64,000 nt of DNA from Vicinamibacterales bacterium. GTDB taxonomy: Bacteria; Acidobacteriota; Vicinamibacteria; Vicinamibacterales; 2-12-FULL-66-21. The notes under the pieces are model-generated. The model was not told the origin of the DNA. It searched no databases and saw only the letters and a list, made by a program, of their open reading frames with translations. Numbering within the stretch: position 1 is the first letter of the stretch; each line of letters opens with the position of its first letter. The DNA lies in NCBI GenBank assembly GCA_035711845.1, contig DASTBU010000126.1:1039-65038 (forward strand), given 5' to 3'. Made by a program: the position numbers and the translations under genes. Shown in pieces: positions 13,809 through 61,684 of the stretch.

Positions 13809-13813
13809 CTCAA

Positions 13814-13908
13814 AGCTTCCAGTTTTCAGCTTCCAGCTTCCAGCTTGCAGCTTCCAGCTTCCAGTTCGGTGTTCAATGGAGCTAGCTGGAAGCTGGAAGC
13901 TGGAAGCT
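13814..13908. repeat. Heptamer array hairpin: (AGCTTCC)~7, loop, (GGAAGCT)3-4
   Basis: Read directly. Units start at 13814, 13821 ... 13856 and the inverted units lie at 13881-13908. It sits between convergent sppA and the ppiD-like gene, and the right arm overlaps the ppiD-like stop codon (13907-13909). Confidence 0.85.
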
Positions 13909-15826
13909 ACCCGAGCAACTGCTTGAGCGTCTCTCCGTTGATCTGGATGCGGTCGCGCAGGCGGTCGCGCACCTTCGTCATATACGCGCCGTAGAAGCGA
14001 TTCCGCTGGGACTGCAGCAGCTCGTCTTTGAGCGCCGTCCGGCCCGACGCCAGCTCCTCGGGCGTGACATCCTTCTTCTCGATCACCTTCACCACGAGGG
14101 CGCCGGTGTCGGTCGTGATGGGTGAGCTGACCTCGCCGGCTGCCAGCGCGAATGCGGCGGCGTCGATGGCGGGGCTGGCGCCGATGTCCGGGATCGGGCT
14201 CCCGCGCGGGATGAGCTCGGTCGTTTTCACCTCGAGGCCGGCGGCCTTCGCGGCTGCGTCCAGCTCTCCCGCTTTCAGTTGACCCTTGAGCGCGGCGGCC
14301 TTCTCGCGGGCCGCGTCGAGCGCCTTCTTCTTCAGCACGTCCTCGCGAACCCGCGCCTTGACCTCCTCGAGCGACGGGTCGCGCGCCTCCTGTGTGCCGG
14401 TGACCGTAATGAACGCCATTCCCTGCGGAGTGCCGATCGACTCGCTGACCTCGCCCTGCTTCAGCTCGAACGCGCGGGCGCTCACGGCCGGCGCAATGCC
14501 GAGCCCCGCAATGGGCTCCTCGCGCGAGAAGAACCCGGACTCGCTGACCACGAGGCCGGGCTGGGGTTCGAGCTTGTCGAAATCGCCGGCGCTCTTCAGC
14601 TTTCCGGCGAGCTCGGTGGCGCGACGCTCGGCTTCCTTCTGCACTCGCTCCCACTTCAGCTGATCCTCGATCTGCGGGCGCACTTCCTCGAAAGGCCGCG
14701 TGGCGGCCGCGCGCTTCTCTCCACCCTTGATGATGTGGTACCCGAACGTCGTCTTCACGAGATCGCTCACCTGTCCGGGCTCGAGCGCGAACGCTGCGTC
14801 CTCGAACTCCTTGACCATCTGGTTGCGGCCGAAGAAGTCGAGATCGCCCCCCTTCTCCTTGCTGGCTTCGTCCTCGGAGAGCTTCGTGGCAAGCGCGGCG
14901 AAGTCGGCGCCTCCCTTGATCTGCGCCAGGAGGTCCTCGGCCTGTTTCTTCACCGCGGCGTCGTCCTTGCCTTCGGTCTTGAGCAGGATGTGGCTGGCAC
15001 GCATCTGTTCGGGCGTCGAGTACTGATCCACGTTGTCGTCGTAATAGCGGCGCACTTCCGGTTCCGCCACGGTCGTACGCTCGCGGAGCGCGTTGGTGTC
15101 CACCAGCGCGTAGCGGACCTTGCGCTTCTCCGGAATCCGATACGTCGCCGTGTTCGCCTCGAAGTGCGCGGCGATCTCCCCATCGGTTGCGGTCAACCCT
15201 TCGCGAAACTTGTCGGCAGGGAAGGACACCACCGCAAGCTTGACCTTTTCGTTCCGGCGCCGGAATTCCTTGTCGACTTCCTCATCGCTGACCGTGATCC
15301 AGGCCGTCAACGCGGCCTGCAGCTTCTCCATCACGATGCCGCGGCGGACCTGATCTTCGAACTCACTGGGCCTGAAGGGCGGATTGGCCGACTGCAGGAT
15401 CAGGCGATACTGCTGGTCGCCGACGAACTGTCCGTTCTGCTGAAACGCGGGCAGCGACATGATCCGGGTGCGGACTTCCTCGTTGCTCGCCCTGATGCTC
15501 AGGCGCTCGGCTTCCGCCAGCGCGAGCTCCTCTTCGATCATGCCCTGCACGATCCGCTGCTCGACCCCCAGCTGTCGCAGCATCCGGTCGTCCATGTTGG
15601 CGCCGTAGGCGTTGCGGTATGCCTGCATCTGCTGCGAGTAGGCGCGGCGGAAGCGGGCAACCGTGATGTCGCGGCCGTCGACCGTGGCCACGACGTCGGT
15701 ATTGCCTGCGCCGGCAGGGTTGTCCATGAAGCTGGGGATGTAGAGCCACACAAACGCCACGACCACAATCGCCAGGCTCCATTTGAGCCAGTTCTTGTGG
15801 CGGCGCATCCGGTCGAGCATCGTCAT
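13907..15826 (-). CDS. Periplasmic chaperone / parvulin-type peptidyl-prolyl isomerase (PpiD/SurA-like)
   Basis: N-terminal anchor MLDRMRRHKNWLKWSLAIVVVAFVW. Parvulin domain ASHILLK...GGDLDFF...FGYHIIK. The start is taken at MTMLD (15826); the ORF is open back to 15874. Confidence 0.8.
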   Translation of the reverse strand: MTMLDRMRRHKNWLKWSLAIVVVAFVWLYIPSFMDNPAGAGNTDVVATVDGRDITVARFRRAYSQQMQAYRNAYGANMDDRMLRQLGVEQRIVQGMIEEELALAEAERLSIRASNEEVRTRIMSLPAFQQNGQFVGDQQYRLILQSANPPFRPSEFEDQVRRGIVMEKLQAALTAWITVSDEEVDKEFRRRNEKVKLAVVSFPADKFREGLTATDGEIAAHFEANTATYRIPEKRKVRYALVDTNALRERTTVAEPEVRRYYDDNVDQYSTPEQMRASHILLKTEGKDDAAVKKQAEDLLAQIKGGADFAALATKLSEDEASKEKGGDLDFFGRNQMVKEFEDAAFALEPGQVSDLVKTTFGYHIIKGGEKRAAATRPFEEVRPQIEDQLKWERVQKEAERRATELAGKLKSAGDFDKLEPQPGLVVSESGFFSREEPIAGLGIAPAVSARAFELKQGEVSESIGTPQGMAFITVTGTQEARDPSLEEVKARVREDVLKKKALDAAREKAAALKGQLKAGELDAAAKAAGLEVKTTELIPRGSPIPDIGASPAIDAAAFALAAGEVSSPITTDTGALVVKVIEKKDVTPEELASGRTALKDELLQSQRNRFYGAYMTKVRDRLRDRIQINGETLKQLLG

Positions 15827-15931
15827 TGGTCGCGGCCTCGTCTTGCAGCGCGCCCGGCGTCCGGAGCCGGGCACGTCTCGGAGTCACTCGGGAACGGGAA
15901 ACGCTAATTATGCCATGGGTTAGGAGGCGCC

Positions 15932-15959
15932 GGGTGCCTGGCGCCAGGTGCTCGGTGCC
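15932..15959. repeat. Short heptamer array (GGTGCCN)x4 containing the palindrome CCTGGCGCCAGG
   Basis: GGGTGCC TGGCGCC AGGTGCT CGGTGCC, read directly in the divergent region between the ppiD-like and GGDEF genes. The palindrome is at 15937-15948. Confidence 0.6.
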
Positions 15960-16216
15960 GCATGCGGGCGCACGGACGAGCGGCCTCGCGCCGATAAGGT
16001 ACGGGCCGGGTGCGGAACCCGCTTGGCGGTCAACCTTTACGCAGGCTGTGGGCTCGGATCGTCCCGCAACGGGCCGGTTTCCGCGGTTCGGATGTGGTAA
16101 TATTTACGTTGAATAGAAGCACTTACGAGGATTCGCACATTCCAAACGGAACCCAGAGCCGATTGACCCGGACCGACCGGAACGGGCGCGGCCGCGGTCG
16201 ATCGAGCAGGAGAAGT

Positions 16217-17266: not shown

Positions 17267-17275
17267 GAGTCGTTT

Positions 17276-18301
<1,026 letters not shown>

Positions 18302-18302
18302 T

Positions 18303-18344
18303 GCCGGGGCTCGGGTCTTGGTGTTCGGGACTCGGGAACTCCGC
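18303..18344. repeat. Heptamer array (CTCGGGA-like, ~6 units)
   Basis: GCCGGGG CTCGGGT CTTGGTG TTCGGGA CTCGGGA ACTCCGC. These units are the reverse complement of those at 18411-18501. Confidence 0.7.
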
Positions 18345-18410
18345 TTGGATCGTAAGGATGAGTAACGTCGTTCCGCGGGTAGGGCCTGCGTGCGAATGCG
18401 CCGAGACGCG

Positions 18411-18501
18411 AGTCCCGAGCCCCGAATCCCGAGCTCCGAGCCCCGAGTCCGGAGTTCCGAGCCCCGAATCCCGAGTCCCGAGCTTCGAATCCCGAGCACC
18501 G
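18411..18501. repeat. Heptamer array, 13 units of AGYCCCG-type (TCCCGAG family)
   Basis: AGTCCCG AGCCCCG AATCCCG AGCTCCG AGCCCCG AGTCCGG AGTTCCG AGCCCCG AATCCCG AGTCCCG AGCTTCG AATCCCG AGCACCG. The array ends 2 nt before the proposed mreC GTG start. Confidence 0.9.
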
Positions 18502-18503
18502 AA

Positions 18504-19892: not shown

Positions 19893-20020
19893 GTTCACGG
19901 ACCCGACGGTGCCACGAACGGACCACGGTCGTCACGATGATCGGATGACACGATGAGCACGATGGACCTTATTGGGAACGAGAACTCATCGAGTCATCCG
20001 ATCATCGTGGCCATCGTGCC
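19893..20020. repeat. CACGGAC/CACGATG-family repeat element forming a 25-bp hairpin
   Basis: 19933-19957 (CACGATGATCGGATGACACGATGAG) pairs with 19985-20009 (CTCATCGAGTCATCCGATCATCGTG). I checked this base by base: 24 of 25 pairs, with a 27-nt loop. Further CACGRNC units lie 5' of it. Confidence 0.85.
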
Positions 20021-20084
20021 TGCCGTGAGCCCGTTTGTCGGACCGCTGCCGCCTGGCGTCGAGAACTGAAGAGATGGTCGACCC

Positions 20085-21992: not shown

Positions 21993-22034
21993 GGAAACTG
22001 GAAACTGGAAACTGGTAACTGGAAACTGGTAACT
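21993..22034. repeat. Heptamer array (GGAAACT/GGTAACT)x6
   Basis: Six exact 7-nt units fill the whole space up to the rodA GTG at 22035. There is no inverted partner nearby. Confidence 0.9.
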
Positions 22035-23141
22035 GTGTTCGAACGCCGCCTGATATTCCACGTCGACTGGCTCCTCCTGGGGGCCCTGCTGCTCATCACG
22101 GGCATCGGCGTCGCCATGATCTACAGCACGACGTTCGTCGCCGTCGGCGACGGCGGGCACGCGGGGCCACAGGTGCGCACGCAGATCTACGCGCTCATCA
22201 TCGGGCTCATCGCGCTGCTGGTGTGCCTGATGATCGACTACCGGGTGCTGGCGGAGAACTCCCTGGTGCTCTACGGCGGTCTGCTCGCGCTGCTGCTGTT
22301 CGTGCTCTTCAAGGGCTCGACCCAGTTCAACGCGACCCGCTGGATCGCGATCGGGCCCTTCAACCTTCAACCCTCGGAATTCGGCCGGATCATGGTCGCG
22401 CTGATGCTGGCGATGTACTTCGGCGAGAACCGCCGCGGGGCGCGCAGCGTCAGCGACCTCGCCCTCGGCGGCTTGTTCACGGCTGTTCCCATGCTGCTCA
22501 TCGCGCGCCAGCCGGACCTGGGCACCGCCGTCACCCTGATTCCCGTCTTTCTCGGCGTGGCCTATCTCGCGGGCATGCGGATGCGCCTGCTCGGCGTGAT
22601 CGCGCTCATCGCCCTGCTGATGGCGCCCTTCGCGTGGCAGTTCGCGCTCAAGGATTATCAGAAGACACGTATCACGACGTTCGTGAACCCGGAGAAGGAT
22701 CCGCGCGGCGACGGATATCAGCAGATCCAGGCGCGGATCACGGTCGGATCGGGCGGCTTGACCGGCAAGGGGTTCATGAAAGGCACGCAGGGGCAGTACA
22801 AGTTCCTGCCGGTCGCTCACAACGACTTCATTTTCTCCGTGCTGGCCGAGGAGAAAGGCTTCATCGGCGTGCTCGCCGCGCTCGGCCTCTATCTGTTCGT
22901 CATCCTGCGCTCGCTCGAGGCCGCCCGCCTCTCGAAGGATCGATTGGGGGCGTACCTGGTCGCAGGCATCATCGCCGGGTTCTCGTTTCAGGTCATCTAC
23001 AACATTGCCATGTCGGCCGGCCTCGCGCCGGTCAAAGGCATCACGCTGCCGTTGATGAGCTATGGCGGGTCCTCGCTCATTGCAACGCTGGCATCCTTCG
23101 GCTTGATCCTCAATGTGAGGATGAGGCGATTCACGAACTGA
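22035..23141 (+). CDS. rodA: Peptidoglycan glycosyltransferase RodA (SEDS family)
   Basis: 368 aa with ~10 TM helices. HVDWLLLGALLL, QPSEFGRIM, HNDFIFSVLAEE and GITLPLMSYGGSS motifs. Confidence 0.9.
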   Translation: MFERRLIFHVDWLLLGALLLITGIGVAMIYSTTFVAVGDGGHAGPQVRTQIYALIIGLIALLVCLMIDYRVLAENSLVLYGGLLALLLFVLFKGSTQFNATRWIAIGPFNLQPSEFGRIMVALMLAMYFGENRRGARSVSDLALGGLFTAVPMLLIARQPDLGTAVTLIPVFLGVAYLAGMRMRLLGVIALIALLMAPFAWQFALKDYQKTRITTFVNPEKDPRGDGYQQIQARITVGSGGLTGKGFMKGTQGQYKFLPVAHNDFIFSVLAEEKGFIGVLAALGLYLFVILRSLEAARLSKDRLGAYLVAGIIAGFSFQVIYNIAMSAGLAPVKGITLPLMSYGGSSLIATLASFGLILNVRMRRFTN

Positions 23142-24946: not shown

Positions 24947-24995
24947 GTGGTCGGTGTCCCGTGGTCCGTCGCCACGGACCACGAGACGCACTACG
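24947..24995. repeat. Heptamer units (GTGGTCC / GGACCAC) forming a 9-bp hairpin
   Basis: GTGGTCG GTGTCCC GTGGTCC GTCGCCA CGGACCA CGAGACG. Stem GTGGTCCGT (24961-69) pairs with ACGGACCAC (24974-82). It lies between convergent genes. Confidence 0.7.
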
Positions 24996-25627: not shown

Positions 25628-25806
25628 CTGTGCCGGGTGCCTGGTACGGGGGTGCCGTGGACGCGACGGCGTGGCGGGAAATACTACGGCTGAGGCATTG
25701 TTTCACTACGCCGACTCTTCCGGCACTGAGTAAGGGCGTCCGGCACCAGACACCGCCTGTACCAAGGCACCAGGCCCAGGCCGTCCCGGGCACCCAGGCC
25801 CCCCGC
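25628..25806. repeat. Degenerate inverted GGTGCC / GGCACC repeat element
   Basis: Left part is GGGTGCC TGGTACG GGGGTGCC GTGGACG (25635-25663). Right part is GGCACCA GACACC ... CAAGGCACCAGGC ... GGGCACCCAGG (25742-25800). The period is 7-9 nt and imperfect. Confidence 0.4.
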
Positions 25807-25824: not shown

Positions 25825-26886
25825 CTACTGCCGGCCGATGATGATGCTGCCGGAAAACGTCGTGAGATCGAGGAAGGCGCTGGCGTCGCCGAACGTGCCG
25901 CTGACGGAGCGCTGGCGGCCGCGGTTCCCGCCGCTCGTGCTGGTGATCTTGAACTGCTCGAGATCGGTGCGCACGCTGCCGCTGAAGGAACTGGCATCCA
26001 GCTCGAAGCCGACGTTGCCGCTGATCGTGACGCGAATCTCGCCCGAATGCGATCCCAGGTCGTAGCGCCCGCCCTTGACCAGGGGACCGGTCATCTCCAC
26101 GTCTCCGCTCACCGACTGGGCGTCGAGGCGTTCACAGTCGACGTTCTGCAGCACGACATCGCCGCTGACGCTCCCGACGTCCAGACGCCGCGCTTTCACG
26201 TTCCTGAGCGTCATCGTGCCGCTGATCGTCGCGGCGTCCATTGTCCCCTCGATCGTCGTATCGGTGATCTCGACGTCGCCCGACGCGGTTTTGGCCTGGG
26301 TGACGCGGCCGGCGCTCGCGACCCGCACGTCGCCGCTGATGGTTTCGAGCGAGACGTCGCCCTTGATGCCGGTGACCGACAGGTCGCCCGAGATGGAGTT
26401 GGCGGTGATCCGCGCGTGCTCCGGAGCCGTGATGCTGTAGGCGACGCTTCCGCTGGACTCCCGGCGTCCCCTGCGAGACTCGTCCGCCGTCCGCGAGTAC
26501 CGCGTTTGGATTTCCACGCGGCCCGAACGCTCGACAATGTCCACCTCGACGTGTTGAAGCGCCTGCCTGGCTTCCTCCGCCGTCTGCCCGCGTCCGGTCT
26601 TGACCGCCTCGATGGTGACCTCGTTTCCGCTTCCGCGCGTCACGGCGATGTCGCCGGCGAGATTGGAGACCTGTATCTCACCGCTTTCCCCGAGCCGGAC
26701 CGTCTTCGTGATGCGCTCCGTCTCGGTCTGGCGCCGGGAGCCCTGGTAACGCTCGACGTCCCTGCCCTCGACCACCGTTCGCGTAAGGGTGCGGATGCGA
26801 TGCGGGTAGACCTGGGCGCCCGCCGGCATGGCGGGAAGGAAAAAGGCCGTGAGCGTGATCGTCGTGAGCAGGCTGCGTATCATCAT
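25825..26886 (-). CDS. DUF4097-like beta-strand-repeat protein (putative adhesin fold), secreted
   Basis: Signal peptide MMIRSLLTTITLTAFFLPAMPAGA. Many repeats of the SGD(V/I/L) type (ISGDLSV, ISGDVRV, ASGDVEI, VSGDVVL, VSGDVEM, HSGEIRV). Confidence 0.7.
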   Translation of the reverse strand: MMIRSLLTTITLTAFFLPAMPAGAQVYPHRIRTLTRTVVEGRDVERYQGSRRQTETERITKTVRLGESGEIQVSNLAGDIAVTRGSGNEVTIEAVKTGRGQTAEEARQALQHVEVDIVERSGRVEIQTRYSRTADESRRGRRESSGSVAYSITAPEHARITANSISGDLSVTGIKGDVSLETISGDVRVASAGRVTQAKTASGDVEITDTTIEGTMDAATISGTMTLRNVKARRLDVGSVSGDVVLQNVDCERLDAQSVSGDVEMTGPLVKGGRYDLGSHSGEIRVTISGNVGFELDASSFSGSVRTDLEQFKITSTSGGNRGRQRSVSGTFGDASAFLDLTTFSGSIIIGRQ

Positions 26887-26904
26887 CGTCTGTAATCTGA
26901 TTCT

Positions 26905-27654
26905 CTAGGATTTGTTGATGCCCTCGATGACCTGTGCCGCTCCGGCGGCGTCGCCCTTGCGCATCTCGTTCATCAGCGCGACTGCGTCCTGCAGCAGCGC
27001 GACCTTGCGGCGGAGGGCGTTGAACAGGCTGTCGCGGGCGATCGTGCTCTGCGGCTCCGTCTTGAGCGCTGCGCGGCTCTCGGCGATGGCCTGGTCGATC
27101 ATCTCGAGATTCTTCTTCAGCATGGCCGCCGTCTGCGGATCCATGACCGCTTCGTCCGCTTTGGCCGCTTCTTCGAGCTTCGCGATGCCGGTTTGCATGT
27201 GCTCTTCGGCCAACCGGAAGTGATCTTCGATGCTTTGGACGGCTTCCTCACCAGCGGCGTTGCTCTCCGCCGCCGCCGACTGCGTCGTCCCGGGCTGCGA
27301 GCTGTCGCCGCGAAGGAGCGGGAGCAGCAGCAGGAGCGACGCGCCAACCGCGACGATCAGTCCCGCTGCAATGGCCAGCAGCGCGACGCGCGATGCCCTC
27401 GCCGACGGGGCGGGCGCCGGCGGCAGCACGCGGCCCTCCTGCCGCAGGCGACCCGCGATCTGCAGCCACACGCCGTCTGGCGGCGATTGGGCATCCAGGG
27501 TCGCGGCGACGTTGCGAATCCGCTGGAGATCCGCGAGCATCGCACGGCATCCCGCGCACTGATCCAGATGCTGCTGCAGCTCCGCCTTGCGGATCTCGCC
27601 CAGCGTTCCGTCGACCAGTTCGTGAATCGCCCGCGTGTACCTTGCGCAGTTCAT
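26905..27654 (-). CDS. Anti-sigma factor (zf-HC2, single TM, periplasmic coiled-coil)
   Basis: ATG at 27654. HLDQCAGCRAML zinc-finger motif, TM helix VALLAIAAGLIVAVGASLLLLL. It starts 23 nt after the sigma gene stop. Confidence 0.7.
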   Translation of the reverse strand: MNCARYTRAIHELVDGTLGEIRKAELQQHLDQCAGCRAMLADLQRIRNVAATLDAQSPPDGVWLQIAGRLRQEGRVLPPAPAPSARASRVALLAIAAGLIVAVGASLLLLLPLLRGDSSQPGTTQSAAAESNAAGEEAVQSIEDHFRLAEEHMQTGIAKLEEAAKADEAVMDPQTAAMLKKNLEMIDQAIAESRAALKTEPQSTIARDSLFNALRRKVALLQDAVALMNEMRKGDAAGAAQVIEGINKS

Positions 27655-27677
27655 TGCAGCTGTCCGCCGTGAGCTTC

Positions 27678-28316
27678 CTATCTTTTTTCTGCGAGCAGCG
27701 CCCGCAGCTTCATCCGTGCCTTGTGTACCTGCGATTTCGACGTCCCTTCGGCGACGCCCAGAACCTCCGCCACCTCGCGGTGCTCCAGCCCCTCGACATC
27801 GTGGAGCACGAATGCGGCACGGCAACCGTCCGGAAGCCGCGCCAGCGCGCGCTCGAGATCCATCTTCGTCACGGTCTGTTCGGCCAGCGTCGCGCTCGAC
27901 GGATCCGGCAATCCCGCGTCGTCGTCCAGGGCATCCGTGACCTGACGGGACCGGCCGCTCCGGCTCCGCAGGTGGTCCAGGCACAGGTTCGTGGCGAGCC
28001 GATACAACCACGTGCCGAGCGCCGACTCCCCGCGGAACGTGTCCAGCTTCCGGTGGGCCGCGAGGAAAATCTCCTGCAATAGATCTTCGGCGTCGGCCGG
28101 GTTGCCGACGAGCCGCAGCGCCACGCTGTACAGGCGCCCGGCATGGAGCCGGTACAGCTCTTCGAACGAACCGAGATCGCCCCGGCGGCAGCGTTCGACC
28201 AGGGTCAGCTCGTCCTGCCGTCCTGCGGGCGCATGCGCGCGCCCTGCCGCCGCGGGATGCACTGTAACCTTAGACGTCCCCATGCCCAGTTCGCGTTGCC
28301 GCCCGGCCCATTCCAT
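27678..28316 (-). CDS. ECF (sigma-70 family group 4) RNA polymerase sigma factor
   Basis: Region 2 (FEELYRLHAGRLYSVALRLVGNPADAEDLLQEIFL, WLYRLATNLCLDHLR) and region 4 (VLHDVEGLEHREVAEVLGVAEGTSKSQVHKAR). The start is uncertain (28316 or 28283). Confidence 0.85.
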   Translation of the reverse strand: MEWAGRQRELGMGTSKVTVHPAAAGRAHAPAGRQDELTLVERCRRGDLGSFEELYRLHAGRLYSVALRLVGNPADAEDLLQEIFLAAHRKLDTFRGESALGTWLYRLATNLCLDHLRSRSGRSRQVTDALDDDAGLPDPSSATLAEQTVTKMDLERALARLPDGCRAAFVLHDVEGLEHREVAEVLGVAEGTSKSQVHKARMKLRALLAEKR

Positions 28317-35146: not shown

Positions 35147-35217
35147 CCGATTGCGGATTGGAGATTGGGGAATTGGAGATTGAGGATTGGCAATTGGGGA
35201 ATGAGCGCGGGCAATGA
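35147..35217. repeat. Heptamer array (GGATTG/GGAATTG-type, ~10 units)
   Basis: CCGATTG CGGATTG GAGATTG GGGAATTG GAGATTG AGGATTG GCAATTG GGGAATG ..., between punA and cdd. Confidence 0.8.
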
Positions 35218-35830: not shown

Positions 35831-35935
35831 CAGCTACCAGCTGCCAGCTACCAGCTATCAGCTACCAGCTATGAGCTACCAGCTGAGAGCTGAAAGCTGC
35901 AAGCTGTGAGCTGTAAGCTGTGAGCTGGTAGCTGC
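35831..35935. repeat. Heptamer array, 15 units of NAGCTNN (CAGCTAC ... AAGCTGT ... TAGCTGC)
   Basis: Exact 7-nt phasing from 35831 to 35935, starting 3 nt after the cdd stop. The AGCT core makes the two halves partly self-complementary. Confidence 0.9.
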
Positions 35936-35937
35936 AA

Positions 35938-35943
35938 TAGAAT
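35938..35943 (+). promoter_or_regulatory. -10-like box TAGAAT, 8 nt upstream of the mtnA ATG (possible leaderless transcript)
   Basis: TAGAAT-ACGTATTC-ATG read directly. No Shine-Dalgarno sequence is present. Confidence 0.3.
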
Positions 35944-35951
35944 ACGTATTC

Positions 35952-36995: not shown

Positions 36996-37070
36996 ACTGC
37001 CTTCAAACTTCAGCCTTTGAACTTCAGCCTTTGAACTTCAGCCTTTAAACTTCAGCCTTTAAACTTCATT
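36994..37070. repeat. Tandem 14-nt (7+7) repeat (CTTCAGC CTTTGAA)x5
   Basis: GAACTGC CTTCAAA CTTCAGC CTTTGAA CTTCAGC CTTTGAA CTTCAGC CTTTAAA CTTCAGC CTTTAAA CTTCATT. It begins inside the mtnA stop codon and ends at the tsaD TTG start. Confidence 0.9.
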
Positions 37071-38191: not shown

Positions 38192-38610
38192 CGGCATACA
38201 CCGACTATCTCTGGTTCAACACGAAGAAGCGGCAGGAGTTCATCCGCATCACGGACGAGGTCGCCGCCATCGTCAGGAAGAGCGGTGTGCAGGAGGGCAT
38301 CGTGCTGGTCTCCGCGATGCACATCACGGCCGGCGTCTACGTGAACGACTGGGAAGATGGGCTGATCGCCGATTTTCAAGAGTGGCTGGAGAAGCTCGCG
38401 CCCGCCGGTCTCCCGTATCGGCATCACCAGACCGGCGAGGACAATGCCGACGCCCACCTGAAGCGGACGATCATGGGACACCAGGTGATGCTGCCCATCA
38501 CCGAAGGCAAGCTGGACCTCGGACCCTGGGAGCAGGTCTTCTACGCGGAGTTCGATGGCCAACGCCGCAAGCGGGTCGTCGTGAAGGTGATGGGAGAGAT
38601 TGCACCGTAG
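38188..38610 (+). CDS. yjbQ: YjbQ/UPF0047 family protein (secondary thiamine-phosphate synthase-like)
   Basis: 140 aa. [23 protein letters not shown] and [16 protein letters not shown] motifs. It overlaps the tsaD stop by 4 nt. Confidence 0.85.
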
Positions 38611-38646
38611 GCCGTAGTCCGTGGTCCGTCACGGATCACGGACCGC
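38611..38646. repeat. Heptamer units (CCGTGGT / ACGGACC family) forming a hairpin
   Basis: GTCCGTGGTCCGT (38617-29) pairs with ACGGATCACGGAC (38631-43) with one mismatch. It starts directly after the yjbQ stop. Confidence 0.7.
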
Positions 38647-38673
38647 GTACACGCATATTAAAATGACCGATCG

Positions 38674-40522: not shown

Positions 40523-40659
40523 AACAAGGGGATCATGGGGATCACGGGGTTCAGAGTCCAAGGTTCAAGGTTCGAGTTCACTGGGGCCTCGATGCGTTCA
40601 ACCCATGAACCCCAGAACCTTGAACCCTGAACCCCTTGAACCCCTGAACCGAGCAACCC
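40523..40659. repeat. Inverted heptamer arrays (GGTTCAA-type, then TTGAACC/CTGAACC-type)
   Basis: Left arm 40523-40585 (GGGGATC ACGGGGT TCAGAGT CCAAGGT TCAAGGT TCGAGTT). Right arm 40596-40659 (CCATGAA CCCCAGA ACCTTGA ACCCTGA ACCCCTTGAACCCCTGAACC). It starts directly after the stop codon. Confidence 0.85.
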
Positions 40660-40678
40660 GTATAAGCTAGAACACACC

Positions 40679-44320: not shown

Positions 44321-44523
44321 CAGGGTATCTGGTCCCTGGTCCCTGGTCCCTCGGTCCTGGGTCCCTGGGGCCGGGTCCCTGGTCCTTCGTCCCTCGGTCC
44401 TGGTCCGTGGGTCCGGGTCCCTGGACGCTGGGTCTCTGGACGGAGGGACTCTGAACGGACGGACCAAGGATCAGGGACCCGGACCGAGGGACCCAGGACC
44501 GAGGGACGAAGGGACCAGGGACC
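44321..44523. repeat. Large inverted heptamer array: ~16 x GGTCCCT-type, then ~10 x AGGGACC-type
   Basis: Units read at 44331, 44338, 44345, 44374, 44416 and so on. The right arm is 44443-44523 (GGACCAA GGATCAG GGACCCG GACCGAG GGACCCA ...). It starts directly after the stop codon. Confidence 0.9.
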
Positions 44524-44612
44524 TAAAGGCGTTCGGATCCGGACAGTTGCGACAATTGGAGTGGAACTTTTTACCCCATGGATCTGTATAATCCAAACAG
44601 AGGGTCACGCGA

Positions 44613-45572: not shown

Positions 45573-45593
45573 CTCCTCTCGCTCCTCCTCCAA

Positions 45594-45619
45594 GGCCGGC
45601 ACGATGCCGGCCTTTTTTT
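45594..45619 (+). terminator. Rho-independent terminator
   Basis: GGCCGGC-ACGAT-GCCGGCC followed by TTTTTTT. Confidence 0.8.
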
Positions 45620-46530: not shown

Positions 46531-46698
46531 CGGTCCCTGGGTCCCTGGTCCCCTGGTCCTTGGTCCCTCGGTCCTTGTCCCTGGTCCTCGGTCCCTCTGT
46601 CCTTGGCCCCTCAGGCCTGGGGCCCAGGACCCTTGGACCGAGTACCAGCGACCCGGACTTATGGACCCAGGACCAGGGACCAAGGGACCCAGGGACCG
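46531..46698. repeat. Large inverted heptamer array, same GGTCCCT / AGGGACC family as 44321-44523
   Basis: Left arm 46531-46608 (CGGTCCCT GGGTCCCT GGTCCCCT GGTCCTT GGTCCCT CGGTCCTT ...). Tip is GGCCCCTCAGGCCTGGGGCC. Right arm 46621-46698 (GGACCCTTGGACCGAG ... GGACCCAGGACCAGGGACCAAGGGACCCAGGGACC). Confidence 0.9.
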
Positions 46699-46704
46699 TA
46701 TAAT
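46699..46704 (+). promoter_or_regulatory. -10 box TATAAT, 8 nt upstream of the aldehyde dehydrogenase ATG (possible leaderless transcript)
   Basis: TATAAT-CAGATGCT-ATG read directly. No SD sequence. Confidence 0.35.
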
Positions 46705-46712
46705 CAGATGCT

Positions 46713-49554: not shown

Positions 49555-49587
49555 AATGCTGAATGCTGAATGCTGAATGCTGAATGA
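49552..49587. repeat. Heptamer array (TGAATGC)x5 spanning a stop codon and the next start codon
   Basis: TGAAATGC TGAATGC TGAATGC TGAATGC TGAATGA. The first TGA is the thiolase stop (49552-54). ATG at 49556 opens a 6-codon ORF (MLNAEC) that ends at TGA 49574-76, immediately before the ATG at 49577. Confidence 0.9.
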
Positions 49588-51819: not shown

Positions 51820-52010
51820 TGAATCGGCACATTGTCGATTCGTTCATTGCTGAATGCAGATTCATTGACGAATGCGGGTGGTGGATTGGGGATTCAATTC
51901 GATGATTGTCGACTGCGGCGCGCCAATCATCAATAGGCGAATGAAATCTCCAAGCTCCAATCTGCAATCCTTAAATCAATCTACAATCCGCAATCGACGA
52001 ATCTCCAATT
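51820..52010. repeat. ~190-nt composite palindrome of heptamer units (GAATG/GATTG arm, GGCGCGCC centre, CAATC arm)
   Basis: Left units are TGAATCG ... TGCTGAA TGCAGAT TCATTGA CGAATGC ... GGATTGG GGATTCA. The centre GGCGCGCC is at 51917-24. Right units are AATCATC ... ATCTCCA AGCTCCA ATCTGCA ATCCTTA AATCAAT CTACAAT CCGCAAT. It starts directly after the stop codon. Confidence 0.85.
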
Positions 52011-52872: not shown

Positions 52873-52879
52873 CACTCAG

Positions 52880-52914
52880 AATTCTGAATTCGGAATTCTG
52901 AATTCTGAATTACC
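52880..52914. repeat. Heptamer array (AATTCTG)x5, self-complementary through GAATTC cores
   Basis: AATTCTG AATTCGG AATTCTG AATTCTG AATTACC, between convergent genes. It overlaps the stop codon of the minus-strand gene (52910-12). Confidence 0.9.
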
Positions 52915-55111: not shown

Positions 55112-55310
55112 CACGGAGGTTTGGCACGGGCACGGGGGCACGGGGGCCACGGGACCAGGCGAGCGACCAGTCGGCACAGCCCGCAGATGTGAGCCTCGAC
55201 GCACCCGCCTGCACCAGGCTGCCGGGTGCGGCGGCGCTGACCGATCCCCGTGGCCCCCGTGCCCCCGTGGCCCCGTGCTGACTTTCCCCCGTGCTGACTC
55301 TTCCCCGTGC
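55112..55310. repeat. Inverted CACGGGG / CCCCGTG repeat element (7-9 nt period, plus 2 x 16-nt CTGACTYTTCCCCGTG)
   Basis: Left: CACGG at 55112, then CACGGG at 55125, 55131, 55139 and 55148. Right: CCCGTG at 55247, 55256, 55264, 55272, 55288 and 55304. An inner GCACCCG...CGGGTGC hairpin is also present. Confidence 0.75.
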
Positions 55311-55328: not shown

Positions 55329-58205
55329 TCACCTCCCTGACGCCATCAGCTTTCCTCGCAGTTCCTCGATCCAGTTCTGCACCAAGACGAGCTGCAGCCG
55401 TGACGCCGGCGTGTCGGTGCTGGACCGCAGCATCAGGAAGCGCTGGTCGTCTGCCGAGACTTCGAAGTCGGGTCCGAGCTGGCCGCCGAACGGCTCGTAG
55501 GCGAACAAGCGTGCATGGCCGAGTACGGTGAATGTCTTGCCGGTCCCGACGGATGCGGCGACGAACGATTGGCCGTCGTAGTAGAACAACTCGCCGCCGC
55601 GGTGCGCCCAGCGTGGCGACGTTCCGCCTGCCAGCGATACCTGCGACTTGCCGTTGGCAACGTCGGGGAACGGGCGAACGTAGATTTCGAAGCGGCCCGA
55701 CTCGTCCGACTGGTAAGCCATCCAGCGTCCATCAGGCGAGATCTGGGGCCGCAACTGCGCGAACGCGCCCGTGAGCAGCCGGCGAGGGCTGTCCGGGGAG
55801 CCTGGCACGAGCGCGTAAATCGATTGCTCGCCGTAGCTGCGGAACTCCGTGAAGAGCAGCGTGCGGCCGTCGTGCGACCACCCGTGCGGCGTGTGAAGCC
55901 GGCTGCCCGAGGTGGTGAGCCGCCGGACCCGACTGCTGCCATCGATCGTCTCCAGAAACAGGCCGCCGCCATCGCGTTCCGATCGATAGACTACCGCGCG
56001 GCCGTCCGGCGTCCACGACGGCGCGGTCTCGGACGTGGGATCGCGGGTCAGCCGGGTCATCGTTCCGTGCTCGATGTCGCCCACCCAGATATGCGTGTTG
56101 TCCCGTTCGCTCACCGCCAGTGCGATTCGGCGGCCGTCGCGCGAGAGGGCCGCGCGCGTGTAGCCCCGTGGCTCGAAGCGGAGCGGCGTCTCCCTGCCGC
56201 TCCGATTCAGCCAGACCAGCTGGCGTTCCCGCACTTCCACCCGGCGCGGGGCGTACATGAGCGATCCTGCTGCCACGTCAAAATGCGCGGTTGCGCTGGC
56301 AGCCGTATCGAGCGCTTCCACCACCGGAACGGCCTCGCCTGTGATTTGCAGCCGGCGCTCGTCGAAGGGCGCTGCCCACATCGTATGGTCGCGGACGAAC
56401 AGCAGATAGCCCGGAGCGAGATAGCGTGGCTGCGATCCGGCTGTTAGAACGGTTACCCTCTTCGTGTCGAGCCGCACGACGGCCACCAGCCGCTCCTGCG
56501 CGCGCACGATTGTGAAGAGCGCTGCGTCCCCGCCGGGCATGACGTGCGGGAACGTGTGCGCGAGGTCGCCCGCGGCAACGTCGAGCAGCGTCACCGGTTC
56601 CGGTGTGCCGCCGCTTGCCGCGACCCGGTTGAGCATTCGCCCGGTTGCGGTCGAGAAGACGATCGTATTCCCGCCCCAGCTCGCAGTCGCTCCTCCCGGC
56701 GCCGGACAGATGGTGACAGGTGTTCCGCCATCGACCGACAGCTTCTGCAGTGTGCCGGCGCCATCGAATGCGAGCCATGCGCCGTCGGGCGAAAAGAACG
56801 GCCCGGCCGCGTTCGTTGTGCCCGGGATCGGTTCCGACTCCATCCCGTCGAGCGCATGCTTGAAGAGCTGAACGGTGCCGGCCCGGCTCGCACGATAGAC
56901 GACGGTACGGCCATCGGGGGAGAGTGACGCGACCTGCTGGGCACTCGCGATCAGCACATCCGATGCAGGGACCGGTACCGCCAGTCGAACCACCGCGGGC
57001 GGACGTGCCCGCCAGGCCCGAGGCAGCAGAACACCCCCGCCGATTCCTGCGATCAGAATGAATGTGGCCGCAGCCGCCCTGAACGCCGTCGATCCCCAGC
57101 GAGGCCGGCGTTCCCACGGTCCGGCCTTGCCATCCCCGTGCTGCGTTCGTCCGAGATCGAGCATGGCACTGCCAAGATCGGCGAGCCGCCCCGCCGGGTC
57201 CTTTGTCAGCGCACGCCGCAGCACCCGCCGAACATGTTCGGGCGTGGCAGCCGGCAGCAGCGAGAAGTCCGCCTCGCGTTCGACCACGTGCGCGATGGTG
57301 TCCTGCGTCGTGTCGCGGTCGAAAGCGCGCACGCCCGTCAGCATCTCGTAGAGCACGCAGCCGAATGCCCAGACGTCAGCGCGGTAGTCGACCTCCACGC
57401 CCCGCGCCTGCTCGGGTGACATGTACGCCGGAGTTCCGACAATCCGGCCCGGATCGTGGAGCGACGTGATGTCGGCAGCACTGCTTCCAACCGCTTTTGC
57501 GAGCCCGAAGTCGAGGATCTTGACCGTGCCGTCGGCGATGACCGACACGTTGGCCGGTTTCAGATCGCGGTGCACGATCCCTCGTCGGTGCGCGGCTTGG
57601 AGGGCAAGCGCGATCTGGGTGGCGACGGACAACACCTCCCGAATTGGGAGGGGGCCCGACCCGATGCGCTCGGCGAGCGTCGTGCCTTCGACGTACTCGA
57701 GCACGAGTGCCTGGCGGTCGCCGTCTTCAGCCAGGCCGTAAATGGCAGCGATGTTCGGATGGTTGAGTGAAGCCAGGAGCCGCGCCTCTCGGTCGAAGCG
57801 CGCCAGCCGCTGGCGATCCTCGACGAACTCCCGCGGCAATACTTTGAGCGCCACCATGCGCCCGAGACGCTCGTCCCGTGCGCGGTAGACTTCGCCCATG
57901 CCGCCGCGCCCGACGAGCTCGAGCACCACGTAGGTGGTGAAGCGCTGGCCCGGCTCGAGTGCCGGGGGCTCCGCCTCGTGGGCCTCCTCCCAGGCCTCGG
58001 ACAGCAAGCCTGCCATGGCGAGCCCGCTCCGCTCGAGGAATCCGTCGTCCTGTTCCGCTTCCGCAAGAACGTCGAGGAGCGCCTCCGCAAGATCCGGATT
58101 GTGGCCGGCCTCGCGACCGATGAACGCGCGGCGTTCCTCGGGTGGATGGTCGAGCGCCCGGTCCAGCAGGTCGTTTGCTTCCGGCCACTTGCCGAGATCG
58201 CTCAC
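55329..58205 (-). CDS. Ser/Thr protein kinase with TM segment and C-terminal TolB-like PD40 beta-propeller
   Basis: GTG at 58205 overlaps the sigma gene stop (GTGA). Kinase motifs GRGGMGEVY, VALKVL, HRDLKPANV, DFGLAK and GTPAYMSPE. TM helix AAATFILIAGIGGGVLL. Repeated PD40-type segments (SPDGRTVVY, SPDGAWLAF, SRDGRRIAL, TPDGRAVVY, SHDGRTLLF, SPDGRWMAY). Confidence 0.85.
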   Translation of the reverse strand: MSDLGKWPEANDLLDRALDHPPEERRAFIGREAGHNPDLAEALLDVLAEAEQDDGFLERSGLAMAGLLSEAWEEAHEAEPPALEPGQRFTTYVVLELVGRGGMGEVYRARDERLGRMVALKVLPREFVEDRQRLARFDREARLLASLNHPNIAAIYGLAEDGDRQALVLEYVEGTTLAERIGSGPLPIREVLSVATQIALALQAAHRRGIVHRDLKPANVSVIADGTVKILDFGLAKAVGSSAADITSLHDPGRIVGTPAYMSPEQARGVEVDYRADVWAFGCVLYEMLTGVRAFDRDTTQDTIAHVVEREADFSLLPAATPEHVRRVLRRALTKDPAGRLADLGSAMLDLGRTQHGDGKAGPWERRPRWGSTAFRAAAATFILIAGIGGGVLLPRAWRARPPAVVRLAVPVPASDVLIASAQQVASLSPDGRTVVYRASRAGTVQLFKHALDGMESEPIPGTTNAAGPFFSPDGAWLAFDGAGTLQKLSVDGGTPVTICPAPGGATASWGGNTIVFSTATGRMLNRVAASGGTPEPVTLLDVAAGDLAHTFPHVMPGGDAALFTIVRAQERLVAVVRLDTKRVTVLTAGSQPRYLAPGYLLFVRDHTMWAAPFDERRLQITGEAVPVVEALDTAASATAHFDVAAGSLMYAPRRVEVRERQLVWLNRSGRETPLRFEPRGYTRAALSRDGRRIALAVSERDNTHIWVGDIEHGTMTRLTRDPTSETAPSWTPDGRAVVYRSERDGGGLFLETIDGSSRVRRLTTSGSRLHTPHGWSHDGRTLLFTEFRSYGEQSIYALVPGSPDSPRRLLTGAFAQLRPQISPDGRWMAYQSDESGRFEIYVRPFPDVANGKSQVSLAGGTSPRWAHRGGELFYYDGQSFVAASVGTGKTFTVLGHARLFAYEPFGGQLGPDFEVSADDQRFLMLRSSTDTPASRLQLVLVQNWIEELRGKLMASGR

Positions 58206-58789
58206 GCCTCGCCTCCGGGCTCCGGCGGTCGGGTGCCCGGCTCCAGGTGCGCCCTCAGCCATGCGCGCGCCTTGAACCACTCCCGCTGAACGGTTCGAAC
58301 GGAGCTGTCGAGCGCGTCGGCCGTCTCCTGCTCGTTGAGGCCCGCGAAGTAGCGGCACTCGACGACCCGCACCATGCGCGGGTCGATCTCTTCGAGGCGC
58401 TTCAGCGCCTGATCGATGGCCAGGATCTGATCCAGGTCGTGCGGTCGCGCCTCCGGCGCTTCGAGCAGCGTGACGGGAAGCTCGCCGCCCCCTCGCTTCC
58501 GTCGTCCATGATGCCGGGCGCGATCGACCACGATCTGGCGCATCGCCAAAGCGGCCACCGCAAAGAAATGCCGGCGGTCGTTCCAGGTGGCCCGGCGCTG
58601 ATCGATGAGTTTCACGTACGCTTCGTGCACCAGCGCGCCCGTGTCAAGGCTCGCGCCGCGCGTGGTGCGCCGCATCTGCGAGCGGGCGAGGCGCTTGAGG
58701 TCCTCGTACACCAAAGGCACGAGGTCCGAGAGTGCCTCGGGCCCGCTTCCGCGGTGTGCCTGCAGCAGTTGGGTGATGTCTCCCGGCAT
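58202..58789 (-). CDS. ECF sigma factor of the kinase-associated type (TIGR02999 / ECF43-like)
   Basis: ATG at 58789 (MPGDITQLLQAHRGSGPEALSDLVPLVYEDLKRLA). ALVHEAYVKL. Region 4 is VECRYFAGLNEQETADALDSSVRTVQREW. Confidence 0.85.
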   Translation of the reverse strand: MPGDITQLLQAHRGSGPEALSDLVPLVYEDLKRLARSQMRRTTRGASLDTGALVHEAYVKLIDQRRATWNDRRHFFAVAALAMRQIVVDRARHHGRRKRGGGELPVTLLEAPEARPHDLDQILAIDQALKRLEEIDPRMVRVVECRYFAGLNEQETADALDSSVRTVQREWFKARAWLRAHLEPGTRPPEPGGEA

Positions 58790-58944
58790 GAGTTCGCGCC
58801 TGGGTGCCAGAAACCGGCCTGCACGGTCACATGGCGTGATCGGCGGCTGTTTGACGGGTGAGCAAGATGAGCCGGCCACTTCGATGGTAACGCCGAGAGC
58901 CGGGTTGCGCCAAGCATGAGCCGGCCCGAGACGAGACCGTCGCG

Positions 58945-59648: not shown

Positions 59649-59693
59649 AGTAGGTGGGGCGGACAGGCCGCGCGGGACGTATATACTGCGGTC

Positions 59694-60317: not shown

Positions 60318-60332
60318 GGCCGCGGTCCGGGC

Positions 60333-60402
60333 CCACGACTACCACGATGAGTGTGGAACGATTTCATCGGTCCATCGTGTCATCCAATCATCGTGTGACG
60401 CC
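60333..60402. repeat. CACGATG / CATCGTG-family repeat element (same family as 19893-20020)
   Basis: CCACGAC TACCACG ATGAGTG ... TTTCATC GGTCCAT CGTGTCA TCCAATC ATCGTGT. CACGATGA (60343-50) pairs with TCATCGTG (60389-96). Confidence 0.7.
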
Positions 60403-60464
60403 GTGGCGTATGCCTCGGGATCGCCGCGATGTCCGGCCGCTCGGCCGGCTGCTATGATGGCTGG

Positions 60465-61484
60465 ATGATCATTCGCGACGTCCTCATAGTCGGCGCCGGC
60501 CCGGCCGGGCTCGCAACCGCCATCGCCGCGACGAAGAGCGGCCTCACCTATCAGGTCATCGAAAAGGGCGCGCTCGTCAACTCACTGCTCCACTATCCCA
60601 CCGAGATGGTGTTCTTCACGACACCGGAGTTGATGGAGCTCGGCGGGATGCCGTTCGTCAGCCCCTACGACAAGCCGACGCGTCTCGAGGCGCTGCGGTA
60701 CTACCGCCGGATCACGGACGCGTTCGACCTCGATGTGCTGTTCGACGAAACCGTGGTCGCCATTATCCGCGAAACGGGTGTGCCAGACGACGAGGGAACG
60801 TTCCTCGTCGATACACGCTCGACCCGTGGTGTCCGGCGTTCGCTGCGGGGGCGCGCCGCCGTGATCGCGACGGGCGCGTACGACGTGGCGAACCTGATCG
60901 GCGTGCCCGGGGAAGATCTCCCGCACGTGTCGCACTATTACACCCAGCCGCACCCGTTCTACCGGAAGAACGTCGTCGTGGTGGGCGGCAAGAACTCCGC
61001 CGCCGAGGCGGCGCTCGAACTGTTCAGGGCCGGGGCGCGGGTGACCATGGTTCATCGCCAACCGGCGCTCGGCGAGTCCATTAAATACTGGGTGAAGCCG
61101 GACATCGAGAACCGCATCAAGGAAGGCTCGATCGCCGCCCGCTTCGAGACGCGCGTCGTGGAGATCCGGCCCACCAGCGTGCTGGTGGAGCGAGCGGGGG
61201 AGCAGAGCGAGTTCGACGCGGATGCGGTGTTCCTGCTGACCGGCTACAGCTCGGACACGACGCTTCTGCGTGCGGCGGGCGTGGACCTCGATCCCGAGAC
61301 CTGCGGCCCGGTGTTCGACCCGCAGACATTCGAAACCAATGTTCCCAATTTATACGTGGCGGGTGCGGTCGTTGCAGGCATCCAGAGCGGCAGGATCTTC
61401 ATCGAGAACGGGCGATTTCACGGCCAGCAGGTCATCGATGCGATCCTTGCGAGGCGCGGGGCTCGCGCATTGCAGAGTCGTTGA
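60465..61484 (+). CDS. ypdA: YpdA-family FAD/NAD(P)-binding disulfide reductase (putative bacillithiol-disulfide reductase)
   Basis: ATG at 60465 (MIIRDVLIVGAGPAGLATAI). GALVNSLLHYPTEMVFFTTPEL, VVVGGKNSAAEAALEL and YVAGAV. Confidence 0.75.
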   Translation: MIIRDVLIVGAGPAGLATAIAATKSGLTYQVIEKGALVNSLLHYPTEMVFFTTPELMELGGMPFVSPYDKPTRLEALRYYRRITDAFDLDVLFDETVVAIIRETGVPDDEGTFLVDTRSTRGVRRSLRGRAAVIATGAYDVANLIGVPGEDLPHVSHYYTQPHPFYRKNVVVVGGKNSAAEAALELFRAGARVTMVHRQPALGESIKYWVKPDIENRIKEGSIAARFETRVVEIRPTSVLVERAGEQSEFDADAVFLLTGYSSDTTLLRAAGVDLDPETCGPVFDPQTFETNVPNLYVAGAVVAGIQSGRIFIENGRFHGQQVIDAILARRGARALQSR

Positions 61485-61677
61485 GGGCGGATTGCAGATT
61501 CAAGCGGGGTTGCTGATTGTGAGGATGGCGATGTCATTCGGAGATCGGTAGCAGCTGTGTCAGGCAACCGGTGGTACAGCCGGCCGCCGAACCCCACGAA
61601 TGACCGAATGAAATCGACCCTCGTCAATCCGCAATCCCCACTCAATCTGCAATCTGCCCTCCACGATTCCGCAATGG
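61485..61677. repeat. Inverted heptamer element (GGATTGC/CAGATTC arm, then CAATCCG/CAATCTG arm; same family as 51820-52010 and 35147-35217)
   Basis: Left: CGGATTG CAGATTC AAGCGGG GTTGCTG ATTGTGA GGATGGC. Right: CGAATGA CCGAATG AAATCGA CCCTCGT CAATCCG CAATCCC CACTCAA TCTGCAA TCTGCCC. It lies between convergent genes. Confidence 0.8.
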
Positions 61678-61684
61678 GCGTCCT

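Follow-up and report, generated by a model that had tools for sequence, protein, structure and literature searches.

What are the heptanucleotide repeats that crowd the spaces between genes in this stretch of DNA, and how did they come to be there? The stretch, referred to below as the window, comprises 64,000 nucleotides (nt) from an uncultured Vicinamibacterales bacterium of soil with a GC content of ~66% throughout, and an original prediction made from its sequence had listed about 20 intergenic loci with strict or near-strict 7-nt phasing. Arrays were located by Tandem Repeats Finder (TRF) and by a separate scan for runs in which base i equals base i+p, for which dinucleotide-preserving shuffles served as the null; genes were called from third-position GC content (GC3) and then hand-curated against metagenome gene calls. 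The run scan returned 10 period-7 runs with a total length of 444 nt, compared with 0.3 in the shuffles, and between 0 and 4 runs at each of periods 3-6 and 8-13. Period 7 is the sole strongly over-represented short period in the window. All of these runs are intergenic and none is coding, and in the intergenic DNA between 13.8 and 61.7 kb the arrays take up ~2.2 kb of ~5.7 kb (~38%). The window has 15.6 period-7 runs per 100 kb, compared with 6.1 at other Vicinamibacterales loci and 2.3 at unrelated control loci (n=67). Even in these control taxa, the value for period 7 tops those of all periods that are not multiples of 3 (periods 4, 5, 8, 10 and 11 have 0.3-0.8 runs per 100 kb).

Period-7 arrays were called by TRF at 13814, 13884, 18401, 21993, 35156, 35831, 38605, 40548, 44329, 44461, 46532, 49555, 51945 and 52879, and its further rows at periods 14, 15, 21 and 43 are arrays already called at period 7. 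The core of the predicted set of loci is therefore real by TRF and by the run scan, but strict phasing was overstated at several of them. In about six loci, including 19893, 55112, 60333 and parts of 40523, the spacing is irregular or has a period of 8-9 rather than a constant 7, while 15932, 24947 and 25628 are weak and have no TRF call.

The arrays were compared with those of near-identical strains, whose loci were gathered by exact-protein look-ups in more than 10 independent metagenome assemblies, one of them a 4.7-Mb contig (ENA ERZ28493222). Across mtnA, these strains share 99.5-99.7% identity with the window. Their assemblies contain the same arrays at unchanged positions, but the arrays are length-variable rather than fixed, with allele differences of 7, 14, 21 or 35 nt, in agreement with the local slippage in 7-nt steps that had been proposed from the sequence. 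The spacer at 35831 has six length alleles among 9 sequences (86, 107, 114 (three contigs), 128, 142 and 147 nt), which differ by 7-nt steps with one exception of 7n-2. The spacer at 36999, where the unit is a 14-mer, has alleles of 54 (nine contigs), 55, 68 and 168 nt, and that at 35149 has alleles of 65 and 58 nt. At 44329, the strains differ by indels in the central part of the array only, and their flanks are identical. Larger losses affect the palindromic loci: the spacer at 61485 measures 200, 201, 117 or 71 nt, where the left arm has been lost in one strain and another retains only the base of the stem, and the 238-nt spacer at 55112 is reduced to 92 nt in strain contig L100 by deletion of the right arm and loop. 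Over the time in which strains diverge, arrays thus grow and shrink by whole 7-nt units or by blocks of 14 or 21 nt, and long palindromes also lose a whole arm or the centre of the hairpin. The arrays are not confined to the window either, since L100 reaches ~6 kb beyond it and carries further arrays of the same unit families.

Repeats are a classic source of misassembly, and short-read contigs often stop at these arrays: among ten such contigs that carry the ABC permease gene, seven end exactly at the 44329 array. The possibility that the arrays are an artefact of chance or assembly is nevertheless negligible. Period-7 runs exceed those in shuffled sequence more than thirtyfold, the same arrays recur at the same sites across the independent assemblies, including the 4.7-Mb contig, and length differences between assemblies are whole units; these three results together refute it. 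Contigs that end in or at heptamer arrays are L003, L004, L006-L010, L113, L119, L147 and L210.

Across species, thirteen Vicinamibacterales loci with the gene order of window positions 31-46 kb were compared, with the proviso that loci from short-read metagenome-assembled genomes (MAGs) tend to miss arrays, since these are the places where contigs break. In two related species, represented by a long-read MAG (L022) and a short-read MAG (L021), the same spacers are mostly 4-120 nt long and contain no array. Downstream of the ABC permease gene, both keep a promoter-like block (GGAACTTTTTACC...TATAAT...CAGAGGG.CACGC), while the 200-nt GGTCCCT/AGGGACC palindrome is absent. In the cdd-mtnA spacer, the units are CAGCTAC in the window, TCGGAAC in L012 and GCCCCAA in L017; L018 and L019 have irregular CACGAAA/TTTCGTG palindromes, and L021, L022 and L014 have nothing. 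Related species with conserved gene order are thus mostly without arrays at the same sites, and the differing or absent units at a single spacer imply that arrays were gained and lost independently in each lineage and are not conserved elements. Period-7 arrays, many of them inverted pairs, do occur at other sites in L022, L023, the Pyrinomonadaceae locus L024 and the Anaerolineales locus L065.

Some relatives carry simpler structures. Plain GC-rich hairpins without U tracts stand at the same post-stop sites in, for example, L023 and L017 (ABC permease). In L017, a simple hairpin (GCGGTCC-TGAC-GGGACCGC) lies 3' of the ABC permease ortholog where the window has its GGTCCCT/AGGGACC palindrome, and is perhaps what is left of a seed hairpin of the type that could expand into an array. 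Post-stop palindromes of irregular CACGAAA/CACGGAG units followed by TTTCGTG/CTCCGTG units are found in L011 (3' of w26), L018 and L019 (3' of w28 and w29) and L014. Their spacing is 8-11 nt rather than 7, and they have a CACG core in common with CACGATG, CACGGGG and CACGGAC of the window; they look like a looser relative of the window phenomenon.

We consider it probable that the arrays are hypermutable heptanucleotide simple sequence repeats (SSRs) that are non-adaptive and have incidental effects at the RNA level. Arrays would grow by replication slippage; mismatch repair corrects loops of at least 5 nt poorly. The complementary arm would stem from an inverted duplication, or from intrastrand template switching, at a post-stop hairpin, an origin that would explain why the irregular units of 6, 7 and 8 nt in one arm at 44329 are mirrored in the other (~56 of 62 aligned columns identical). 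The arms would slip independently afterwards, which would account for their unequal lengths at 13814 and 18302 and among the strain alleles. The arrays lie almost only in DNA that follows a stop codon and precedes the next promoter or start codon, and this position would reflect tolerance, post-stop DNA being the only unconstrained DNA in a compact genome, in which a 7-nt unit could not expand within a reading frame. In the transcript, paired arrays would form very long 3' stem-loops that could stop 3' exonucleases or hinder read-through to the next, often leaderless-type, promoter. We regard any such RNA-level effect as a side effect and not as the reason for the arrays.

Inverted pairing is found at ~12 loci, with folding z-scores from -3 to -13 and predicted stems of 10 to 80 bp. 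Pairing of complementary arrays had been predicted for most loci; it is absent from 21993, 35149, 36999 and 49555, which are direct only. The loci are, in order of position:

13814..13908: inverted pair between the convergent sppA (+ strand) and PpiD-like (- strand) genes; left arm (AGCTTCC) x7.3 at 13814-13866, right arm (AGCTGGA) x3.6 at 13884-13908 (TRF); lag-7 identity 0.71; fold -51 kcal/mol, z -7.2.
15932..15960: weak array in a divergent spacer, with some four units (GGGTGCC/TGGCGCC/AGGTGCT/CGGTGCC).
18302..18500: inverted pair with unequal arms in the mreB-mreC spacer; short left arm of GGGnCTC units at 18302-18340, long right arm (CCGAGTC) x11.7 at 18401-18500 with a 21-nt higher-order period; fold z -3.7.
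19905..20025: irregular palindrome in the mreD-mrdA spacer; CACGATG-type then CATCGTG-type units spaced 7-9 nt; TRF period 8; fold z -5.1.
21993..22035: direct-only array (GGAAACT/GGTAACT) x6.1 that fills the mrdA-rodA spacer and adjoins the rodA start codon; lag-7 identity 0.80; no hairpin, z +0.8.
24947..24995: short hairpin in the spacer where the RNase G gene and a hypothetical gene converge, made of GTGGTCC units and their complement; lag-7 identity 0.54; z -3.6.
25628..25800: weak; irregular GGTGCC motifs, with GGCACC motifs ~100 nt further on; z -0.6 for the whole spacer.
35149..35200: direct-only array (GATTGGR) of ~7 units downstream of the purine nucleoside phosphorylase gene.
35831..35935: 15 in-phase units in the cdd-mtnA spacer (TRF-called), shifting gradually from CAGCTAC-type to GAGCTGT/GTAGCTG-type; fold z -9.8; then a -10-like TAGAAT 14 nt upstream of the mtnA ATG.
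36999..37068: direct array of five copies of a 14-nt unit (CTTCAGC + CTTTGAA) in the mtnA-tsaD spacer.
38605..38645: short hairpin, (CCGTAGT/CCGTGGT) x3.6 plus CACGGAY units, overlapping the TAG stop codon of a yjbQ-like gene; z -2.9.
40528..40650: mixed-period palindrome downstream of an HD-domain gene; in order (GGGGATCAY) x2.9, (GGTTCAA) x3.7, loop, (TTGAACC/AACCCCTG) x6.5; z -8.1.
44329..44523: palindrome downstream of the ABC permease gene, larger than all others; GGTCCCT-type units form the left arm (44329-44424), which contains a 43-nt superunit x2.2, and AGGGACC-type units the right arm (44438-44523); 80 pairs, -166 kcal/mol.
46532..46697: palindrome of GGTCCCT/AGGGACC, the unit as at 44329, downstream of a PilZ gene; z -12.8; then TATAAT 14 nt upstream of the aldehyde dehydrogenase ATG.
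49555..49586: perfect direct array (AATGCTG) x4.6 (100% matches, TRF); it fills the 34-nt gap that separates a thiolase gene from an isocitrate/isopropylmalate dehydrogenase-family gene.
51820..52010: loose palindrome of TGAATGC and GGATTG-type units, then AATCTCC and CAATCC-type units; TRF call at 51945-51969; lag-7 identity 0.39; z -2.3.
52879..52911: self-complementary array (GAATTCT) x4.7 between convergent genes, also present in strain contig L100; z -4.8.
55112..55310: palindrome between two minus-strand genes, with a period of 8-9 and not 7; GGGCACGG units then CCCCGTGS.
60333..60400: irregular hairpin built from the CACGATG and CATCGTG units also seen at 19905; near-invariant among strains.
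61485..61684: loose palindrome, 200 nt long, in which GGATTGC and GCAATCC units fill the whole convergent spacer; z -4.8.

A higher-order period of 21 nt (three units) outscores period 7 at 13814-13866, 18409-18496 and 35831-35919; at 18409, the match is 85% at period 21 compared with 74% at period 7. A length of 21 bp corresponds to two helical turns. An exact-protein look-up with the product of the PilZ gene upstream of 46532 returned no match.

Several observations weigh against an explanation by slippage alone. It accounts neither for the preference for 7 over 5 or 8 nor for the recurrence of unit families: after normalisation for rotation and strand, the window contains 5 identical unit pairs compared with 0.2 expected, and 19 pairs with at most one mismatch compared with 4.6 expected (P<0.0005). 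The one published suggestion for the 7-nt step is a polymerase footprint (Mrázek 2007, as cited in PMC4679880 and PMC4692102). Density is also very uneven, with zero arrays at window positions 1-13,800 despite nine spacers of at least 30 nt, a stretch that may have a different history or different constraints, and with 0 to 6 arrays per 21 kb among long-read relatives; in the remainder of the window, most spacers contain arrays. Finally, two aspects of position would also fit a selected role. The starting points are tightly clustered after stop codons, as had been predicted: for 19 of the 20 listed loci, the distance from a stop codon is no more than 24 nt (median ~5 nt), and several arrays run over the stop itself; the weak locus at 15932 is the only one in a divergent spacer and not after a stop. 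In addition, hairpin arrays seem to lie at the boundaries of transcription units, and direct-only arrays inside operons, in the short mrdA-rodA, mtnA-tsaD and thiolase-dehydrogenase spacers.

These positions, together with the very stable predicted hairpins, raise the question of whether the paired arrays are instead selected 3'-end elements, namely U-tract-independent terminators, insulators or mRNA-stabilising stem-loops. They would work in the way of repetitive extragenic palindromes (REPs) and bacterial interspersed mosaic elements (BIMEs), or of the I-shaped terminators known from high-GC bacteria, and would part the upstream gene from the next promoter; the repeat structure would be a mere mode of stem growth. 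Four hairpin arrays are directly followed by TAGAAT, TAAAAT or TATAAT, 14-26 nt before the next ATG, which suggests that one transcription unit ends and another begins there, the downstream genes having short leaders or none. The plain post-stop hairpins of L023 and L017 would also suit such a role, as would the rarity of canonical terminators, with one convincing candidate (45592-45614, a 10-bp GC stem followed by TTTTTTT) in the 19.5 kb scanned. This candidate lies after a gene that ends at 45572, and equivalent T-run hairpins stand at the site in L021 and L022, which indicates that the lineage does use U-tract terminators, unlike the heptamer hairpins. The latter share a GC-rich post-stop stem-loop with intrinsic terminators at ~12 loci, but no hairpin in the window has a U/T tract on its 3' side, and the terminator scan placed no site on an array hairpin. 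Pairing is nearly all Watson-Crick with few G-U pairs, and the two strands fold about equally well, so a recent DNA-level event, such as the proposed inverted duplication, is indicated rather than compensation at the RNA level; a sense-strand signature at the hairpins, in the form of extra G-U pairs or lower energy on the transcribed strand, showed no consistent difference. L021 and L022 have no arrays at the corresponding sites, strains tolerate the loss of an arm or a whole stem, the arms at 18302 and 13814 are very unequal, and hairpins also occur within the normally co-transcribed mreBCD-mrdA-rodA cluster. Selection for a 3'-end function therefore seems to us possible but unlikely.

A bolder combination of these ideas, which we hold to be distinctly doubtful, is that post-stop hairpins have turned into self-expanding heptamer palindromes that act as U-tract-independent terminators or insulators, making read-through heritable and rapidly tunable via slippage. 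If so, stem length would vary between cells, and read-through would be tunable even inside the mreBCD-mrdA-rodA cluster. In a stronger version, a lineage-specific factor (a polymerase or repair variant, or the loss of SbcCD or mismatch repair) may set the 7-nt step, in which case the heptamer preference of bacterial SSRs would become experimentally accessible.

Promoter-like motifs were noted at several of the loci. Hexamers resembling a -10 element (TATAAT, TAGAAT, TAAAAT, TATAAG) lie 14-34 nt upstream of start codons at 35937-35951, 38655-38673, 40651-40687, 44560-44612 and 46698-46712, and some of these blocks, for example CCGTATAAGCTA and GGAACTTTTTACC...TATAAT, are kept in relatives. Judged by these motifs, leaderless or very-short-leader mRNAs are suggested to be common in the lineage. 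A sigma-70 consensus scan of 34-53.5 kb found no promoter.

The recurrence of units partly contradicts the idea of a separate heptamer for every locus. Related families recur as follows:

GGWARCT family: 13814, 21993 and 35831, and in L100 beyond the window.
GGTCCCT family: 44329 and 46532.
TGAATKC family: 49555, 51820 and 52879.
GGATTG family: 35149, 51945 and 61485.
CACGATG family: 19933 and 60333.
GGTGCC family: 15932 and 25628.

The repertoire is limited and mutationally connected, and it recurs in the window, beyond it and in relatives. This significant dispersal of unit families over several loci, within ~70 kb of one genome, could mean that the arrays are copies of a few mobile or recombination-spread families, similar to short tandemly repeated repetitive (STRR) sequences, REPs or MITEs (miniature inverted-repeat transposable elements), which were seeded from locus to locus and then diverged. 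Apart from the excess of identical and near-identical units, neighbouring loci share units (44329 with 46532; 49555 with 51820 and 52879), and the same units appear in L100 and in other Acidobacteriota (L013, L022, L023, L024). The arrays at 44329 and 46532 moreover contain a similar series of irregular units, which suggests a shared history but is weak and not decisive, since periodic sequences align well by construction. The flanks of these two arrays are unrelated, however, and within the window we found no flanks or consensus shared across arrays and no terminal inverted repeats or target-site duplications around same-unit arrays. A transposase, RAYT or reverse transcriptase was found neither in the scanned window proteins nor in the strain contigs' precomputed Pfam calls. 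The original prediction had likewise judged the spread of one mobile sequence to be less likely, and dispersal from a few families appears to us very improbable. Recurrence could equally reflect a bias towards slippage-prone or hairpin-seeded heptamers: the 21-mer (GGTCCCT)3 is present in over 120 metagenome contigs whose GC contents span 35-74%, mostly as single arrays, with a complementary array nearby in only ~15. The idea of slipped hairpins was tested through the self-complementarity of the units, which is not unusual (mean distance 3.18 compared with 3.51 in the null, P=0.16).

The genes of the window include sppA, mreB-mreC-mreD-mrdA-rodA, RNase G, cdd, mtnA and tsaD, along with ABC transporters, thiolases, ECF sigma factors and a Ser/Thr kinase, and are ordinary chromosomal housekeeping genes. 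The best matches of the TsaD protein (64-78% identity) are in Vicinamibacterales (Acidobacteriota subdivision 6) MAGs. There are two ECF sigma modules: one on the minus strand at 25825-28262, comprising the sigma factor, a zf-HC2 anti-sigma factor and a DUF4097 protein, and one at 55329-58900, in which an ECF sigma gene lies directly upstream of a gene for a ~1000-aa Ser/Thr kinase with PD40/TolB-like beta-propeller repeats. The array-free positions 1-13,800 encode a threonine-dehydratase-like protein, a permease and a partner-switching module (SpoIIE phosphatase, HATPase kinase and STAS), as well as a tRNA-Leu(CAG) at 10638-10724 (one tRNA-Leu by ARAGORN). At the gathering threshold, the only Rfam match in the window is this tRNA (10641-10724).

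Tandem heptamers have precedents in several bacterial groups. Mazel and co-workers reportedly described, in 1990, the STRR heptamers of heterocystous cyanobacteria, with units CCCCAGT, TTGGTCA and CAACAGT, and cyanobacterial heptamers of this type were known before the 2007 survey by Mrázek. REPs are copies of one conserved imperfect palindrome of 20-40 nt that is mobilised by RAYT. The window arrays resemble REP/BIME sequences in being post-stop, intergenic and hairpin-forming and in lying inside and between operons, and by analogy they may behave like them at the RNA level, but they are tandem heptamers with no conserved sequence and no RAYT among the scanned window proteins. They also differ from MITEs in having no terminal inverted repeats or target-site duplication around a conserved body. 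TAACTGA heptamer arrays have been described in Beggiatoaceae, cyanobacteria and Bacteroidetes (PMC4679880). The window arrays and the STRR/TAACTGA repeats are alike in that both are intergenic tandem heptamers with several unit families, which here recur within ~70 kb, some arrays lying directly upstream of start codons, and both break draft assemblies. Unlike the STRR host, the host here is an acidobacterium with 66% GC in which inverted pairing is dominant, and neither the STRR1-3 units nor TAACTGA occur in tandem in the window. GGTAACT at 21993-22035 is a rotation of TAACTGG, one base from TAACTGA; GGTAACT/GTAACTG units are also found in L023 (1843-1870 and 9950-9973), and TAACTGA itself in L026, a Bacteroidetes MAG (3019-3049).

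The closest parallel contradicts the claim that such arrays are undescribed for genomes of this kind. Rehm et al. 2015 (PMC4692102) reported GGGAATC heptamer repeats in Xanthomonas campestris and X. axonopodis (~65% GC) that are over-represented in non-coding DNA, favour spacers between same-direction or convergent open reading frames, are rare between divergent ones and lie mostly within 50 bp of a stop codon or overlap it. Each Xanthomonas genome has 70-75 convergent inverted pairs capable of forming stem-loops, only a few such pairs being found in Nostoc, and copy number varies between related species while flanks are conserved; the essentially single G-rich consensus was read as G-quadruplex (G4)-forming, with four units preferred (PMC4692102). 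The arrays described here are likewise intergenic, near stops, rare in divergent spacers, often in inverted pairs and length-variable. They differ in comprising at least 8-10 unit families within 50 kb, most of them not G4-capable, in reaching 15 or more units with predicted stems of up to 80 bp and in belonging to the phylum Acidobacteriota. Units are G-rich, as in the G4-type repeats of Xanthomonas and Nostoc, only at 40528 (GGGGATCAY x3) and 55112 (CACGGGG), most units lack a run of G, and tandem GGGAATC, GGGGATT and GGGGATC are absent from the window. The (GGGGATCAY) x2.9 array at 40528-40553, with its 9-nt period, resembles the GGGNATC and GGGGAYT quadruplex-type heptamers of Xanthomonas and Nostoc.

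In terms of general classes, the arrays fit best with long SSRs, being tandem 5-11-nt units beyond chance, with whole-unit changes between strains and an exclusively non-coding location. According to Mrázek 2007, as cited in PMC4679880 and PMC4692102, heptanucleotides are the most abundant class of long SSR in most bacterial genomes, an excess ascribed there to polymerase slippage. Long SSRs have units of 5-11 nt, and some of the richest genomes are high-GC ones, such as those of Burkholderia, Xanthomonas and actinobacteria (Mrázek 2007 as cited; Huang and Mrázek 2014, PMC4060949). The portions of the long-SSR literature covered by PMC4060949 and the citing papers make no mention of Acidobacteria, palindromic array pairs or an intergenic density of ~38%, and a literature search linking heptamer or tandem repeats to Acidobacteria or Vicinamibacter found no paper. 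The heptamer excess, inverted pairs and placement at stop codons are thus already published (Mrázek 2007 as cited; Rehm 2015; the STRR work), while the present case differs in its phylum, in how many unit families one genome holds, in units that are mostly not G4-capable, and in array density and length of stem.

The preference of bacterial long SSRs for heptamers has been an open question since 2007, and the Xanthomonas case was explained by the G-quadruplex. Finding the same architecture here with many unrelated, mostly non-G4 units argues for the 7-nt period and the palindromic layout, and not G4 chemistry, as the general features. The arrays account for the breaks between genes in short-read contigs of these organisms, and since short-read assemblies lose arrays, repeat density in short-read MAGs is underestimated. 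As the lineage is abundant in soil, the arrays provide ready hypervariable markers for strain tracking, and they constitute a natural many-unit system for asking why bacterial slippage favours 7 nt.

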